Positions 57,789 through 63,964 of a stretch of 64,000 nt of DNA are shown one piece after another. A program made the translations under genes and the position numbers. This stretch comes from an uncultured Gemmatimonadales bacterium (GTDB lineage Bacteria > Gemmatimonadota > Gemmatimonadetes > Palauibacterales > Palauibacteraceae), in NCBI GenBank assembly GCA_963807645.1, contig CAWECO010000005.1, positions 23,510 to 87,509 of the forward strand, read 5' to 3'. Under the pieces are notes generated by a model. It saw only the letters and a list, made by a program, of their open reading frames with translations. It was not told the DNA's origin and did no database searches. The first letter of the stretch is position 1. Every line of letters begins with the position of its first letter.

Positions 57789-59231
57789 TCAGCCGGCGAT
57801 GCGTTGTCGGGAGGCCCGGCCCACGCTTCTCAACATCCCGCGGAACACGAAGGCATGCACTGGAAGCGCGACGTACCAGTAGAGCAGACCGGCCAATCCG
57901 TGTGGGTCGAAGATCGCTGTTTGGGTCAGAACGCTCCCACCGTTGTCGGGCTCGACTTCGAACTGTAGCCAGGCCCGACCGGGAATCTTCATCTCGGCGC
58001 GCAGTCTCAGGAACTGGTCCGGCTCGTAGGCCTCGACTCGCCAGAAATCCAGCGCGTCTCCGGGGCGGAGATCGACGGGGTCCCGGCGTCCACGCCTCAG
58101 GCCCGGTCCCCCTATCAGACGATCAAAGGCCCCGCGAATCCTCCAGAGCAGATCGCCGTAGTACCAGCCCACTTCGCCCCCGATTCGACGTATCGGCTCG
58201 AAGGCCTCGACCGTCGGCGCCTCCACTCGAATGGCCTGACTGTCTACGATCCGGCGGCCGTATCGGCGAGGGCGCGTGGGGGCGCCCACGATGCCCGCAT
58301 CTGACCAGCGGGTAATCGCGAATTGTTGATCCTCGTTGTCCAGGGCCCGGGCGATCGACTCGGCCATCCCTCGTGGGCGAACGCCAAACACTTCCTTGGC
58401 CGACCCGTCATGCACCACAGTGGGGTTACGCACGCCCTCGATCAGCTTGCGGCCTACGCGGGCGTAGAGGGGAGTGATGAGACCGAGCCACAAGCTGGAA
58501 ATCGCCGGCGTCAGGACCGGAACCGGGATCATGATCCGACGTAGGCCCCTCTGCCGGGCGTACTCGCGCATGATATCGCCGTAGCTCAAGACATCGGCTC
58601 CGCCGATCTCGAACACCCGGCTGCCGTCGATGGAGACCTGGCGGGCTTCCATCAGATAAGCGATCACGTCTTCGATGGAGATTGGCTGCGCCAGGACGTT
58701 CACCCAGGAAGGCGTCGTCATGACGGGTAGCTTCTGGACCAGGGCCCGGATCATCTCGAAGGAGAGGCTTCCGGAACCGATGATGATGGATGCTCTCAGT
58801 TCGATCACGGTCACGCCGAACTCGGCCAGGATGCGTCCCACGTCCTGCCGGGTCTCGAGGTGGCTGGAAAGATCATCCCCGCTCCCGAGTCCCCCGAGGT
58901 ATATGATCCGGCCTACGCCGGCCTCCCGCGCCGCATGCCCGAAAGTCCGCGCGGCACGGCGTTCCATCTCTTCCCAGTCCCCGTCGTCACTCATCGAGTG
59001 AACCAGGTAGTAGGCCGTTGTAACACCGGCCATGGCTTCCGCGAGGCTGTTTCGATCGAGCACGTCGCCTTGGACCACCTCCGTCGATGCGGCGACGCGC
59101 GAGGCAAGAAAATCCGGCCGGCGCGCGAGACACCGGAGGGGTACGCCCTCCTCCTCGAGCGCCTCGAGCAACCGGCCTCCGACGTAGCCGGTAGCGCCTG
59201 TGAGAAGGGTCAGCCCGGGCGACTCAAGCAC
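57789..59231 (-). CDS. NAD(P)-binding SDR/NmrA-like domain fused to a DUF2867-like domain
   Basis: GTG 59231 overlaps the upstream SDR stop by 8 nt. LLTGATGYVGGRLLEAL (Rossmann). The C-terminal region WRVEAYEPDQFLRLRAEMKIPGRAWLQFEV is recalled as DUF2867-like. Confidence 0.75.
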   Translation of the reverse strand: MLESPGLTLLTGATGYVGGRLLEALEEEGVPLRCLARRPDFLASRVAASTEVVQGDVLDRNSLAEAMAGVTTAYYLVHSMSDDGDWEEMERRAARTFGHAAREAGVGRIIYLGGLGSGDDLSSHLETRQDVGRILAEFGVTVIELRASIIIGSGSLSFEMIRALVQKLPVMTTPSWVNVLAQPISIEDVIAYLMEARQVSIDGSRVFEIGGADVLSYGDIMREYARQRGLRRIMIPVPVLTPAISSLWLGLITPLYARVGRKLIEGVRNPTVVHDGSAKEVFGVRPRGMAESIARALDNEDQQFAITRWSDAGIVGAPTRPRRYGRRIVDSQAIRVEAPTVEAFEPIRRIGGEVGWYYGDLLWRIRGAFDRLIGGPGLRRGRRDPVDLRPGDALDFWRVEAYEPDQFLRLRAEMKIPGRAWLQFEVEPDNGGSVLTQTAIFDPHGLAGLLYWYVALPVHAFVFRGMLRSVGRASRQRIAG

Positions 59232-59967
59232 GGGGCATCGTGCGGGCGCTTCCAAGGCCCCCGTCGACTCCGAGGATCTGCCCGGTGACCCAGCTCTGCT
59301 CGGAATCGAGCAACCACGTGATCGCGGATGCCACGTCCATCGGTTCCCCGAGACGGCCCAGCGCATGCAAGGACCGGGAAGCTTCCGACGCTCGCTCATT
59401 CGAGGTGATCCGCTCGGTCAAGGGAGTCCGCACCAACCCCGGCGCCACCGCATTGACGCGAATGCCGGCCGGACCGTAGGTGGCCGCGGCCGAACGGACG
59501 AGTCCTTCGATGCCGCCCTTGGCAGCCGCGATCGCTTCGTGGTTCGGAAGACCCGACCGAACGGCAGCCGTGCTGACCAGGACGACCGACCCGCCCTGCT
59601 GAAGCGATTTTCCGCCAGCGCGCACGGCTGCGAAAGCCGTGTCCAGGTTCTGGGCGATCGTCTCGCGGTAGGCGGCCTCGGAGGTCATGTGGGCGGGCCG
59701 CAGGAGCACGGACCCCACGCAGTTGGTGATCCCATCGAGCCGGCCCCACAGAGCCATTGCCCGCCCGACGGCCTCCTCCACGGCATCGAACTGCGTAGCG
59801 TCCGCGGAGAGAGGCTCGCAACCGGTTTCCCGCCCGAGTTCATCGAGGCGGTCCTGGTTTCGGGCCACGGCCAGGACGTTGAAGCTCTGTTCGGTCAGAC
59901 GGCGGGTCACGGCAGACCCTATTCCCCCAGTTCCGCCAAGAACCACGAATGCGGGCACGTCACTCAT
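59224..59967 (-). CDS. SDR family oxidoreductase (atypical: Ile at the catalytic Tyr position)
   Basis: VVLGGTGGIGSA (TGxxxGxG-like). IRVNAVAPGLVRTPL is present. The active-site segment reads STAAVRSGLPNHEAIAAAKGG instead of S...YxxxK. Confidence 0.8.
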   Translation of the reverse strand: MSDVPAFVVLGGTGGIGSAVTRRLTEQSFNVLAVARNQDRLDELGRETGCEPLSADATQFDAVEEAVGRAMALWGRLDGITNCVGSVLLRPAHMTSEAAYRETIAQNLDTAFAAVRAGGKSLQQGGSVVLVSTAAVRSGLPNHEAIAAAKGGIEGLVRSAAATYGPAGIRVNAVAPGLVRTPLTERITSNERASEASRSLHALGRLGEPMDVASAITWLLDSEQSWVTGQILGVDGGLGSARTMPRA

Positions 59968-60123: not shown

Positions 60124-60642
60124 TCAGTCCGTGGACGGCAGCAGGACCGCGTCGATCACGTGGATCACGCCGTTGCTGGCCTCGACGTCGGCCGCAATGA
60201 CTTGGGCGTCATTGACGTACACCTTATCCATTTTCACGGAGATTTCGACCGAGCCACCCTGTAGCGTCTCCGCGGACGTCAGCGTCACCACTTGGTCGGC
60301 TGTGACCTTGCCCTCGACCACGTGATACAGGAGGACTGCCTGCAGTTTCTCCTTGTTCTCCGGCTTCAGAAGGGTCTCCACAGTACCTTCCGGCAACTTC
60401 GCGAAGGCTTCGTCCGTCGGCGCGAACACGGTCAGCGGACCCTCACCCATGAGCGCGCCCGCCAGGTCGGCGGCTTTGGCCGCGGCGATCAGCGTGTTGA
60501 ACGTACCGGCCTCGGCCGCAACCTCGACGATGTTCTTTGCATCCATGTTGTGGTCTTTGGCCATCTCCTGCGCCGCAACCGTGGAAGCAGACGCTGCCAG
60601 AGCAACGGCGACTCCGAATGCCATGATCATTTTGCTGTACAT
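60124..60642 (-). CDS. Secreted fasciclin (FAS1) domain protein
   Basis: ATG 60642 follows AAGGAG (7-nt spacer). Signal peptide present. TVFAPTDEAFAKLPEGTVETLL and NGVIHVIDAVLLP are FAS1 H1/H2-type motifs. Confidence 0.9.
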   Translation of the reverse strand: MYSKMIMAFGVAVALAASASTVAAQEMAKDHNMDAKNIVEVAAEAGTFNTLIAAAKAADLAGALMGEGPLTVFAPTDEAFAKLPEGTVETLLKPENKEKLQAVLLYHVVEGKVTADQVVTLTSAETLQGGSVEISVKMDKVYVNDAQVIAADVEASNGVIHVIDAVLLPSTD

Positions 60643-60771
60643 GGGTCGTTCTCCTTGGTCTGTTTGGAACTGCACTCTACGTTACTGCGATCTATGATAG
60701 AGGCCCCACCGGGTGGCGAAGTCGTCACGGTCTGTACGTCGTAAGAGAAAGGATAGCGTGCCGGAGAGTGT

Positions 60772-60818
60772 TTGTCAAGTCTTTGTCTACATGCAATAAC
60801 TAGATATTAAATAGACAA
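60772..60818. promoter_or_regulatory. Candidate CarH/LitR operator overlapping the photolyase promoter
   Basis: TTGTCAA 60772, TTGTCTA 60783, CTAGATA 60800, TAGACAA 60812. These overlap TTGTCT-N16-TATTAA (60783-60810), 38 nt before ATG 60849. The same 7-mer family recurs at 63374-63416. Confidence 0.45.
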
Positions 60819-60848
60819 TCATGCAAAACGGGGAACGAGACCATCAGA

Positions 60849-62315
60849 ATGGACACACACGTACCGGAGTCCAGGGTTCGCGAACTGAACGATCGGGCTC
60901 CCAACCCGGAAGGGCAGTACATCCTGTACTGGATGACGAGTCACCGGCGCACCTCGGACAATTTCGCGCTCCAACGGGCCGTCGACTGGGCGGTCCAACT
61001 CGGACGCGGGGTCCTCGTCCTGGAGCCGCTCCGCTGCGACTACGAGTGGGCGAGTGATCGATTCCATCAGTTCATCGTGGACGGGATGGAGGACAACTCG
61101 GCAGCGCTGCGCGGGCGCGCGGGAATCGCATACTACCCGTTCGTCGAGCGCGAGCGCGGAGGGGGAAAGGGACTGCTGGAAGCGCTGGGCGAGGAGGCGT
61201 GTGTCGTCGTCACGGACGACTACCCGACGTTCTTCCTGCCCCGCATGCTCGAGGCCGCGAGTGGGCGCATGAAGGTCCGGATCGAGGCCGTCGACTCGAA
61301 TGGCCTCCTTCCGATGCGGAGCACCGACCGGGTATATCCCAGCGCCTACACATTCCGCCGGTACCTGCAGAAGAACCTGCCCTTACACCTCGAACAAGCG
61401 CCGGAGGGCGACCCTGTCGCCAGGCTCGCCTCGTCGAAGAGCCCAACGGTGCCAGATCATGTCCTCGATCGCTGGCCGTCGGCAGCCGTCGAGCTTCAGA
61501 AGGACGGACTCGATGTCGGAACGCTTCCGCTGGACCACTCGGTGGGTCCGACGTCGCTTCGGGGCGGATCCCGTGCGGCACAAGAGCGTCTCGGCGAATT
61601 CCTGCGGCATCGGCTCGCCCGGTACGGGGAGCGCAGCCATCCGGATGAGGAGGCGGCCAGCGGTCTCTCGCCATATCTCCATTTCGGTCACATTGGCCCG
61701 CACGCCGTCCTTGCGCGCCTCGGCGAGCGGGAAGACTGGACACCCGCTTTCGAGGGTCGCCCGACCCACGGCAAGCGGGCCGGCTGGTGGGGAATGAGCG
61801 AAGCCGCGGAGGGATTCCTGGACGAGCTGGTCACGTGGCGCGAAGTCGGCTTCAACATGGCCGCCAACCGCGCCGACCACCGCGAGTACGAGTCACTTCC
61901 CGACTGGGCGCAGCTAACTCTGGCGGAGCACGCGGACGATCCACGACCCCATCTGTACGGTCTCGAGCAGTTGGAAAGCGCGAGTACCGGGGACGAATTG
62001 TGGAACGCCGCTCAGCGACAGCTCCTGCGGGATGGAGTGATCAGCAACTACCTGAGGATGCTCTGGGGCAAGAAGATTCTGGAGTGGACGGAAACTCCGC
62101 GCGAAGCGGCCCGCGTCATGATCGAACTGAACAACCGATACGCCCTCGACGGCCGGGATCCGAATTCGTACTCGGGTATCTACTGGTGCCTGGGCAGGTA
62201 CGACCGGCCGTGGGGCCCGGAGCGACCCGTCTTCGGCAAAATCCGCTATATGACCTCGAAGAACACGGCCCGCAAACTGCGCCTGGGCGACTATCTGGAG
62301 CGATATGCGCCGTGA
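60849..62315 (+). CDS. phr: Class II CPD photolyase (deoxyribodipyrimidine photo-lyase)
   Basis: YILYWMTSHRRTSDNFALQ at the N-terminus. The C-terminus reads NYLRMLWGKKILEW...LDGRDPNSYSGIYWCLGRYDRPWGPERPVFGKIRYM, typical of class II enzymes. Confidence 0.9.
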   Translation: MDTHVPESRVRELNDRAPNPEGQYILYWMTSHRRTSDNFALQRAVDWAVQLGRGVLVLEPLRCDYEWASDRFHQFIVDGMEDNSAALRGRAGIAYYPFVERERGGGKGLLEALGEEACVVVTDDYPTFFLPRMLEAASGRMKVRIEAVDSNGLLPMRSTDRVYPSAYTFRRYLQKNLPLHLEQAPEGDPVARLASSKSPTVPDHVLDRWPSAAVELQKDGLDVGTLPLDHSVGPTSLRGGSRAAQERLGEFLRHRLARYGERSHPDEEAASGLSPYLHFGHIGPHAVLARLGEREDWTPAFEGRPTHGKRAGWWGMSEAAEGFLDELVTWREVGFNMAANRADHREYESLPDWAQLTLAEHADDPRPHLYGLEQLESASTGDELWNAAQRQLLRDGVISNYLRMLWGKKILEWTETPREAARVMIELNNRYALDGRDPNSYSGIYWCLGRYDRPWGPERPVFGKIRYMTSKNTARKLRLGDYLERYAP

Positions 62316-62330
62316 AGCGCGGGACCTTCG

Positions 62331-63299
62331 TCAGGCCGGTACGCCTGAATCCTGGATCGAGGCGAGGGTCGCATAGAGATCCGCGAGACTCATTACGATC
62401 CGGCAGCCGCTGGCTTCGATGGCTTCCCGGTAGGACGGAGCCGCCCGCCCTCCCGCCAGGATCGGCATGGCGGGCCCAACTTCGGCCCGAAGCTGCCGCA
62501 GGCCCTCCGCTACTCTCGGATCGTTCATCGGAAACACGAGACTCACGGCGATCGCCGAAGCGGCCGTGCTGCGGGCCACATCCGCGATGTCCGCGGCCGG
62601 CAGATCCGTTCCCAGGTAGGTCACCCGCCAACCCTGCGTTGCGGCAGCCGCGGACACGAACAGAGCCCCGAACTCGTGGACCTGTCCGGTTGGAGTCGCG
62701 ATCACCAGGCCCGGTGCATCGGCTCCCGGCATGGCCGAGTTCGCCAGGGACTCCAGCACCCGGCGGATAACCGCCGTGGCCAGGTGCTCCTGACCCGGGC
62801 TGAGCTTACCGTGTTCCCAGCTCTCGCCGATGGTCGTCAGCAGTGGACCGAGGACTTCCTCCAGCAGCATTGGGGCGGACAGCGCAACGGCCGACCGCAT
62901 GAGGGACTTCTCCAGCTTCCGCGCGTCGAGCGACTCGACGGCCTCGAGGCAGGCCGCGAGATGCACGGCGGGGGCGGCCGCCAGGGTCTGTTCGACTTCC
63001 CGACGGCGCTCGACGGCCGCGTCTTCATCGTCCCGCACGAGCGCCTTCAAGTCGACCATGGGCAGGTCCGCCACGCGGCTGATTCGTCGTCCGGCCGAGA
63101 CGGCGCGGTGGAGAAGGCCAAGACGCTCGACGTCCTGGTCGGAGTAGAGCCGGTGTCCGCCGCTCGAGCGACCCGGCTCGACGACCTCATAGCGCTTTTC
63201 CCATACACGCAGAACGTCGGCGGTAAGTCCTGTTCTGGTGGCCACGACCTGTATGGGGTGCCGCTTTTCGACGGCGACGTCTGAGCTCAGGTCAGTCAA
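62331..63299 (-). CDS. litR: MerR-family, B12-binding light-responsive regulator (CarH/LitR type)
   Basis: HTH: IQVVATRTGLTADVLRVWEKRY. W-x9-EH signature: WEHGKLSPGQEH. B12 lower-ligand loop: GQVHEFG, then AVSL and ILAGG. The start is proposed at TTG 63299 (GAGGAGA 6 nt upstream); the ORF track allows ATG 63383. Confidence 0.8.
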   Translation of the reverse strand: MTDLSSDVAVEKRHPIQVVATRTGLTADVLRVWEKRYEVVEPGRSSGGHRLYSDQDVERLGLLHRAVSAGRRISRVADLPMVDLKALVRDDEDAAVERRREVEQTLAAAPAVHLAACLEAVESLDARKLEKSLMRSAVALSAPMLLEEVLGPLLTTIGESWEHGKLSPGQEHLATAVIRRVLESLANSAMPGADAPGLVIATPTGQVHEFGALFVSAAAATQGWRVTYLGTDLPAADIADVARSTAASAIAVSLVFPMNDPRVAEGLRQLRAEVGPAMPILAGGRAAPSYREAIEASGCRIVMSLADLYATLASIQDSGVPA

Positions 63300-63373
63300 T
63301 GCACTTCTCCTCGCGGCAATCACCACGCACAGTTCTGGACAGCCGTTGAACGGAATTCGTTGGGCGCCCAAAA

Positions 63374-63416
63374 TTGTCGACATGACAAAGTTTTGTCAAT
63401 GACACGAACTAGACAA
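63374..63416. promoter_or_regulatory. Second cluster of TTGTC/GACAA boxes between the litR-like and SRPBCC genes
   Basis: TTGTCGA 63374, TGACAAA 63383 (together TTGTC-N5-GACAA), TTGTCAA 63393, TAGACAA 63410. Confidence 0.4.
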
Positions 63417-63487
63417 CACTTGCCAAAGGCGGGCTACCTGCCCAGACTCGGCCCGCGGCATCCGTCCACGACAATCAGGGAATCGGC

Positions 63488-63964
63488 ATGAAACATTGGT
63501 TGCGAAGAGAGATGAAAGTGAGGCGACCCGTCGGAGAAGTCTTCCGCTACTTCGCCGATGCCTCGAACCTGGAGAAGATCACGCCCCCGGAGCTGCGATT
63601 CCGGATCCTCACGCCCCTCCCGATCGAGATGCGAGAAGGGACGCTGATCGACTACCGGCTGCGGATCTGGGGCCTGCCCATAGGCTGGCGCACCCTGATC
63701 TCGCGTTGGGATCCGCCGCACGGTTTCGTGGACGAGCAGTTGCGGGGCCCCTATCGGACGTGGGTACACACCCACCGATTTGTCCCGGATGAGAAGGACG
63801 ATACGGCGACCTGGATCTACGACGAAGTCGAATACCAGCTTCCGTTCGGCGCTGCCGGCCGATGGGCGCTCCCTCTGGTTCGGCGCCAGGTCGAGAGAAT
63901 CTTCGACCACAGGGCACAGGTGACGGCGGCCGCTTTCGAAACCGGCGGGACAAACGCCGCGTAA
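63488..63964 (+). CDS. SRPBCC (START/cyclase-dehydrase fold) family protein
   Basis: VRRPVGEVFRYFADASNLEKITPPELRFRI...GPYRTWVHTHRF is typical of SRPBCC ligand-binding proteins (from memory). Confidence 0.7.
   Translation: MKHWLRREMKVRRPVGEVFRYFADASNLEKITPPELRFRILTPLPIEMREGTLIDYRLRIWGLPIGWRTLISRWDPPHGFVDEQLRGPYRTWVHTHRFVPDEKDDTATWIYDEVEYQLPFGAAGRWALPLVRRQVERIFDHRAQVTAAAFETGGTNAA

Follow-up and report, generated by a model that had tools for sequence, protein, structure and literature searches.

Does the cobalamin-binding regulator encoded beside a photolyase gene in an uncultured Gemmatimonadales bacterium act as a light switch, and, if so, which genes does it control? The locus lies in a 64,000-nucleotide stretch of contig C5 (C5:23510-87509; hereafter the window, whose coordinates are used unless another contig is named), taken from a 3.23-Mb source genome of 65% GC that is labelled G000. 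Its central gene, carH/litR (62331-63299, minus strand), stands between a gene for a class II cyclobutane pyrimidine dimer (CPD) photolyase (60849-62315, plus strand) and a divergent gene for a standalone SRPBCC-fold protein (63488-63964, plus strand), and short related boxes are found upstream of the photolyase gene and in the carH-SRPBCC intergenic region. The 322-residue carH product has the architecture and signatures of class I LitR/CarH proteins, and we consider it highly probable that the locus is an AdoCbl (adenosylcobalamin)-dependent light switch of this known type. Synteny was compared across the same genus and a sister family, half-sites also in other Gemmatimonadales, one Acidobacteriota metagenome-assembled genome (MAG) and one Binatia MAG, and gene co-occurrence was scored in 41 relatives.

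The carH reading frame begins with TTG, and a GAGGAG Shine–Dalgarno sequence lies 7 nt upstream. Pfam assigns MerR_1 to residues 16-78 (E = 1.8e-13), B12-binding_2 to residues 116-185 and B12-binding to residues 198-299. The top NCBIfam model is that of the CarH repressor, and the nearest solved relatives are the Thermus thermophilus CarH/LitR structures 3WHP and 5C8D (E about 1e-27). The DNA-binding domain and the B12 module match Thermus CarH separately, with residues 132-262 aligned to 5C8D and 3WHP. Within this alignment, the W-x9-EH segment WEHGKLSPGQEH coincides with W131 and E141-H142 of T. thermophilus CarH, and GQVHEFG coincides with the loop carrying the axial His177. An earlier note on this DNA had described a MerR helix-turn-helix joined to a B12-binding domain with both of these CarH/LitR signatures, a description borne out by the domains, the NCBIfam model and the Thermus alignment. 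Four elements, GxxW, EH, GxxH (containing the lower axial histidine) and GxxxP, have been proposed as the signature of light-responsive cobalamin domains (PMC11796333); all four are present in the window protein, as GESW, QEH, GQVH and GTDLP, and are conserved in 20 orthologues. In its recognition helix and wing (TGLTADVLRVWEKRY...GGHRLYS) the protein is near-identical to Thermus CarH, so that a similar half-site fits. Elsewhere in the genome are a cobalamin riboswitch (C2:257129-257320) and a gene for a PduO-type adenosyltransferase (C1:403690-404196), from which it follows that the cell handles cobalamin and can make AdoCbl. By analogy with its family, the window protein would bind AdoCbl, form an oligomer, repress its targets and release them in light.

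A protein of this family need not sense light itself: it could report cobalamin availability, or work independently of B12 like CarA of Myxococcus, with the light signal coming from elsewhere. Such B12-independent derivatives probably exist in the clade, since several photolyase-adjacent CarH paralogues of the sister family carry ER instead of EH (L051a, L051:2245-3096; L054b, L054:15194-16060; L058:7403-8326) and may be B12-independent or photochemically altered. In addition, the signature Trp of the window protein is followed by a Glu, at the position of Thermus His132, a residue employed by Thermus CarH when in the light state. However, no signature element has been lost from the window protein or from any of its genus orthologues, EH and the axial His being retained throughout; G000 has only one CarH, in which setting no partner anti-repressor was seen; and the targets are enzymes useful only in light. 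We therefore regard a CarH-family regulator without light sensing as unlikely at this locus.

The sites that a light-responsive CarH would occupy form two operators. The first, O(fas/phr), spans 60773-60817, between the photolyase gene and a leftward gene for a fasciclin-domain protein, and contains the boxes TTGTCAA (60772-78), TTGTCTA (60783-89), TAGATA (60801-06) and TAGACA(A) (60812-18). Taken as hexamers, TGTCAA (60773-78), TGTCTA (60784-89), TAGATA (60801-06) and TAGACA (60812-17) start 11, 17 and 11 nt apart and make up two facing 11-bp pairs whose dyad is centred on 60795. When eight genus genomes were aligned, site 1 (TGTCAAG) did not vary in any of the eight, nor did the cores of sites 2 and 4, the surrounding intergenic region being otherwise poorly conserved. 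The same 2+2 layout is found in relatives G007, G012, G006 and G015, where the TGTC/GACA cores start 11, 18-19 and 11 nt apart. The second operator, O(carH/SRPBCC), spans 63375-63415 and contains TGTCGACA (63375-82), TGACAAA (63383-89), TTGTCAA (63393-99) and TAGACAA (63410-16). On the plus strand, TAGACA (63410-15) and ATGACA (63399-404) constitute an 11-bp pair, accompanied by further sites at TGTCAA (63394-99), GACA (63384-87) and TGTCGACA. The operator cores are 69% AT at fasciclin/photolyase and 62% AT at carH/SRPBCC, whereas the window as a whole is 34% AT.

Read on the appropriate strand, these boxes are TnGACA half-sites at 11-bp spacing, and the CarH repeat defined by experiment is 5'-nnnnTnnACAn-3', every 11 bp (PMC9304148). 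A set of 54 AT-rich GACA-N7-GACA pairs was gathered from relatives with only GACA imposed, and 102 of the 108 units carry a T two places before GACA; the derived unit, nnnnTnGACAa, fits the published repeat. The earlier note had proposed related boxes in AT-rich DNA at both promoters, with an 11-bp phasing suited to a CarH-type repressor. Every word that it listed is in place and both regions are AT-rich, the half-site equals the published CarH repeat, and comparison of promoters finds the boxes conserved at the orthologous photolyase/fasciclin and carH/SRPBCC promoters of the genus and the sister family.

Both operators overlap promoter-like sequences, predicted here by match to a sigma70-like consensus. 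The best supported, P(fas), lies on the minus strand (60750-60778) and consists of TTGACA (60778-60773), a 17-nt spacer and TATCCT (60755-60750). Its -35 element is operator site 1, it is the only sigma70-like match in 60600-63520 (10/12 positions), and TTGACA-17-TAnnnT stands at the same place in six relatives. Because site 1 is the -35 element of a conserved leftward promoter, inclusion of the fasciclin, short-chain dehydrogenase/reductase (SDR) and DUF2867 genes in the regulon is supported. On the plus strand, a candidate P(phr) lies inside the operator (60772-60810) in two options, TTGTCA (60772-77)-17-AATAAC (60795-60800) and TTGTCT (60783-88)-16-TATTAA (60805-10), of which the first is better matched in relatives, with CATAAT, TATTCT and TATGGT at the same place. 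The TTGTCT-N16-TATTAA pair of the earlier note thus stands as a candidate P(phr) inside the operator, but the best-supported promoter is the leftward TTGACA-17-TATCCT. Immediately downstream of the -10 element of the fasciclin promoter, five relatives carry one more pair, TGTCTA-N5-TGTCnA. The corresponding window segment (60729-60745) has only a degenerate version of it (GGTCTG...CGTCGT), and the leftward operon may therefore be less strongly repressed in this genome.

On the carH side, TGTCAA at 63394-99 reads TTGACA on the minus strand and is the candidate -35 element of P(carH) (TTGACA 63399-63394, 17 nt, CAATTT). Most genus members have TGTCAA-N5-TGTCyA-N10-TTGACA-N17/18-TAnnnT upstream of carH, the third site being the -35 element. 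The window operator, read in the carH direction, is TGTCTA-N5-TGTCAT-TGACA; here and in G002, G012 and G008, which share this inner spacing, the third site is one helical turn closer (TGTCAT-TGACA).

We note a further element in the carH leader, the 21-nt TCCGTTCAACGGCTGTCCAGA (63334-63354, minus strand), which is nearly invariant in six genus genomes with variable flanks and is unique in G000. It reads CGTTCA-N5-TGTCCA, a degenerate pair with 11-bp spacing that is separated from operator site 1 by an integral number of 10.5-bp turns, and it could be an auxiliary CarH site or the site of another factor. An RNA structure was rejected on account of its weak fold (-2.9 kcal/mol) and the lack of compensatory changes, as was a translated N-terminal extension, because in relatives no in-frame start lies between the element and the place where transcription is predicted to begin.

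The boxes might be no operator at all and represent strong -35-like TTGACA hexamers in AT-rich upstream sequence that repeats by chance. The hexamer TTGACA fits the TnGACA half-site, and one of the boxes doubles as the predicted -35 element at several promoters. The genome-wide counts argue otherwise. The words TTGTCWA/TWGACAA occur 106 times in the 3.23 Mb, and clusters of at least two boxes within 50 bp are found at six loci, against about 0.17 expected; reversed words gave no clusters in the genome. A set of 845 AT-rich segments, together 99 kb, was defined by an AT content of 50% or more over 80 bp; 817 contain no box, 21 contain one and 7 contain at least two, so boxes are not similarly frequent in AT-rich intergenic DNA at large. 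Two of the seven are the promoters in the window, and the other five include a pair of near-identical copies on C2 and C6. The motif search proposed in the earlier note therefore finds the boxes clustered far beyond chance. Moreover, boxes also occur downstream of -10 elements, the pairs are spaced at exactly 11 bp, their mutual orientation and distances are restricted as described below, and the sites track the presence of CarH. A chance origin is thus extremely improbable. Exact counts alone were not used as a test, because codon periodicity inflates them at other spacings.

Several individual matches were set aside. The strict pattern TGTC.A-N5-TGTC.A has 6 matches in the genome, one of which (C1:728112) was dropped as chance because it lies in GC-rich coding sequence. 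Also dropped as chance were a one-mismatch match at C2:257309, inside the cobalamin riboswitch, and a cluster at C3:59657, in a low-GC coding island. Clusters of GACA-N3-TGTC palindromes (C1:183690-183760) and of TGTC-N6-GACA (C1:164008) were not assigned to CarH owing to their different geometry. These last two lie in AT-rich intergenic DNA, the latter (C1:164008-164040) reading TGTCAA-N4-TAGACA / TGTCAA-GG-TTGACA, and may be operators of another regulator or reflect an alternative binding mode of CarH.

If the boxes are operators, a factor other than CarH could still read the TGTC/GACA repeats, with carH as one of its targets; the TetR-type protein encoded beside a folE gene (see below) and a LexA-type direct-repeat repressor come into question. 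Alphaproteobacterial LexA boxes are 11-bp-spaced direct repeats, GTTC-N7-GTTC, and photolyase genes can belong to damage regulons. However, sites lie upstream of carH in every lineage examined, including the other Gemmatimonadales, the Acidobacteriota MAG and the Binatia MAG, and in the sister family the same site grammar precedes both CarH paralogues and the DUF2867 gene. The TetR gene is present in only four genomes, the protein closely resembles Thermus CarH in its recognition helix and wing, and the half-site is the same as the CarH repeat established by experiment (PMC9304148). A different reader of the sites is accordingly very unlikely, and CarH remains the preferred one.

The arrangement of the CarH sites follows a restricted grammar. 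Among the loci of G000 and its relatives, a TGTC pair followed by a GACA pair, so that the two face each other, is found in 19 cases, and the opposite order never. The inner distances of facing pairs are only 17-19 nt (8 cases), 49-50 nt (2 cases) or 59-60 nt (9 cases), which differ by about 3 and 4 helical turns. The facing pairs come from at least six different promoter families; many of the cases are orthologous, and so the counts are not independent events. The layout concerns the design of the operator and not the family membership of the protein. One tentative interpretation, to which we give somewhat less than even chances, is that the CarH clade of Gemmatimonadota and some neighbours uses a new facing-pair grammar, in which the locked inner distances would keep the two pairs on one helical face at about 0, 3 or 4 additional turns, the four DNA-binding domains of the tetramer would be engaged and the long spacings would bend or loop the promoter DNA lying between its two dimers. 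If true, this would be a tunable, loop-forming light switch. In the literature, of which our coverage was incomplete, we found neither a facing-pair layout nor a CarH from Gemmatimonadota.

With the locus read as a class I LitR/CarH light switch, the mechanism would be as follows. In the dark, AdoCbl-loaded CarH, whose likeliest state is the tetramer seen in Thermus and Bacillus, would bind the 11-bp-phased TnGACA arrays, covering the -35 element of the fasciclin-SDR-DUF2867 operon, the core of the photolyase promoter and the divergent carH and SRPBCC promoters, all of which would be repressed. Ultraviolet, blue or green light would cleave the Co–C bond, the oligomer would break up and come off the DNA, allowing transcription of the genes, so that photorepair enzymes and their helpers would be switched on only in light. 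Several features speak against this interpretation. They include the Glu at the position of Thermus His132, the degenerate site 3 (TAGATA) of O(fas/phr), the weak -10 element of P(carH) and the departure of the arrangement at P(carH) from that of most genus members. Further, the pairs face each other here, in place of the same-direction tandem design of three or four repeats; the promoters are consensus predictions in a phylum whose promoters are poorly characterised; and the source genome is a MAG that is 86% complete.

Three described systems come closest to this one. Thermus CarH (= LitR; 5C8D, 5C8E and 3WHP) has the same three-domain architecture, W-x9-EH segment and axial His, and the same TnnACA repeat every 11 bp overlapping a -35 element (PMC9304148); it is a dark-state AdoCbl-dependent repressor, and the same would be expected here. 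It differs in that its operator consists of three tandem repeats in one direction rather than facing pairs, that it targets a carotenoid/regulator promoter rather than photolyases, folE and exported proteins, and that overall, the parts that align share about 35-40% identity. CarH proteins of Bacillus megaterium and of Myxococcales (M. xanthus, Cystobacter, Sorangium and Haliangium) likewise use 11-bp TnnACA repeats with tolerated pseudo-repeats, a plasticity of 1-4 repeats, divergent-promoter operators and autoregulation (PMC9304148), whereas their described operators are same-direction tandems that control carotenogenesis. Since these proteins are dimers or tetramers, the oligomeric state cannot be assumed here. 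Carotenoid control is the classical target but not a defining feature of class I LitR/CarH.

In content, the regulon is similar to that of Pseudomonas class II LitR (PplR1-3 of P. putida and PmlR1/2 of P. mendocina), which includes photolyase, short-chain dehydrogenase, folE and genes of unknown function (PMC9758184). Each promoter there has two sites, one on the -35 element and the other downstream of the start site, and the operator is an inverted hexamer pair, TGTACA-N12-TGTACA, about one turn plus apart (PMC9758184). Unlike the window protein, however, these regulators have no Rossmann B12 domain and receive light via a short LOV protein, and their half-site is TGTACA instead of TnGACA, without 11-bp tandem pairs. 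Rubritalea tangerina, the only cultured match for the protein, has no such sites upstream of its homologue and hence offers no direct model for this operator.

The photolyase is best matched by TIGR00591 (phr2), at 332 bits versus 24 and 23 for the class I models; the score is below the NCBIfam equivalog cut-off of 550, which marks a divergent class II member, and the closest solved structures are the class II photolyases of M. mazei (2XRY) and rice (3UMV). It is convergent with carH, with a 15-nt gap between the stops, in agreement with the convergent class II photolyase of the earlier note. The product of the divergent gene that it named is SRPBCC-like: the Pfam match (Polyketide_cyc2) is weak, a profile of 9 SRPBCC orthologues matches the N-terminal domain of 3OH8 (E = 1.5e-6), and the divergent pair is kept in 11 genus loci. 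The sister family shows the SRPBCC domain in a fusion with an NAD-dependent epimerase/DUF1731-type protein, like that of 3OH8 (L056:10888-12261 and L059:8120-9529); in the genus of the window the domain is encoded by a standalone gene beside carH.

Leftward of O(fas/phr), on the minus strand, the operon's first gene encodes a secreted fasciclin-domain protein (60124-60642; Pfam Fasciclin, E = 4e-41), whose start was corrected to the ATG at 60642, with an AAGGAGA site upstream. The second encodes a classical-type SDR (59224-59967; adh_short_C2, E = 2e-54), conserved beside the fasciclin and DUF2867 genes, and the third, an NAD(P)-binding (NmrA/NAD_binding_10) and DUF2867 protein (57789-59231; Pfam), starts with a GTG and overlaps the SDR stop by 8 nt. 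The SDR has an Ile at the catalytic Tyr position of YxxxK (NHEAIAAAKGG) and, judged from its residues, may be non-canonical or non-catalytic. Across the genus, the gene order is DUF2867-SDR-fasciclin, photolyase, convergent carH and divergent SRPBCC. The sister family has two CarH paralogues, one of them in a fasciclin <> carH-photolyase layout with DUF2867 nearby, and its DUF2867 gene has its own five-site operator; synteny of fasciclin with photolyase and CarH thus holds in two families. The idea in the earlier note of placing the fasciclin gene and both SDR-type genes in the light regulon gains support from the conserved leftward promoter, the CarH-linked synteny and the sister-family operators.

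Photolyase and CarH also co-occur. CarH is present in 28 of the 41 relatives, all 28 of which have a class II photolyase, and 12 have neither. The sole genome with photolyase but without CarH, G021, has DUF2867-phr within a longer operon, where no AT-rich region and no TGTC-N7-TGTC were found.

Elsewhere in G000, candidate CarH sites precede further genes. At C7:117424, five sites flank a TTGACA -35 element before genes for a 54-aa membrane protein and a 737-aa open reading frame (C7:117539-120030, including the 54-aa gene); the latter combines CIA30 with an FeS-BCP/CryB-type photolyase-related (DPRP) domain and is a putative fusion. The motif search also found sites at C9:104152, between the TetR gene and an accessory gene for GTP cyclohydrolase I (folE; C9:104333-104968). 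This folE paralogue, divergent from the TetR gene, occurs only in G000, G005, G006 and G007, and its operator, TGTCctaGACA-N5-TTGACA, is conserved in all four; the housekeeping folE has no such operator. The accessory folE is 95-97% identical among the four genomes, versus 74-77% for CarH in the same genomes, which suggests strong constraint or recent exchange. At C9:82996, TTGACA-17-TATTAT followed by TAGACA-N5-TAGACA precedes a gene for a DUF4397 lipoprotein, and further sites lie before an NmrA-like gene (C5:141964), before an HlyD/RND efflux operon (C2:596831) and before a small membrane protein gene (C2:540821, with a copy at C6:12946).

In Pseudomonas, the targets that LitR controls and light induces include photolyase, SDR and folE (PMC9758184). 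Control of carotenoid synthesis was considered and rejected for G000: within 8 kb on either side of its only SQS_PSY gene there is no box and no AT-rich segment. The genes at the extra sites point to a regulon with two photolyase-family genes, centred on photorepair and light stress rather than carotenoids, in which a B12 photoreceptor would time photorepair rather than pigment synthesis and the extra folE could supply a pterin or folate antenna. A known light switch would thereby be placed, with an unusual site layout, in a little-studied phylum, and Gemmatimonadota, widespread in soil and water with few cultured members, would gain a testable light regulon. For the fasciclin, DUF4397, DUF2867, standalone SRPBCC and Tyr-less SDR proteins, a tie to light exposure would be a functional lead. 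The facing-pair layout, if confirmed, would broaden the ways in which a CarH tetramer reads DNA, and new operator designs for CarH optogenetics could follow.

The two copies of the small membrane protein locus, C6:12816-13093 and C2:540691-540968, are near identical over the operator-like site and the start of the gene; contig C6, 22.8 kb long, may be a duplicate of a portion of C2, through either redundancy in the assembly or a genuine repeat.

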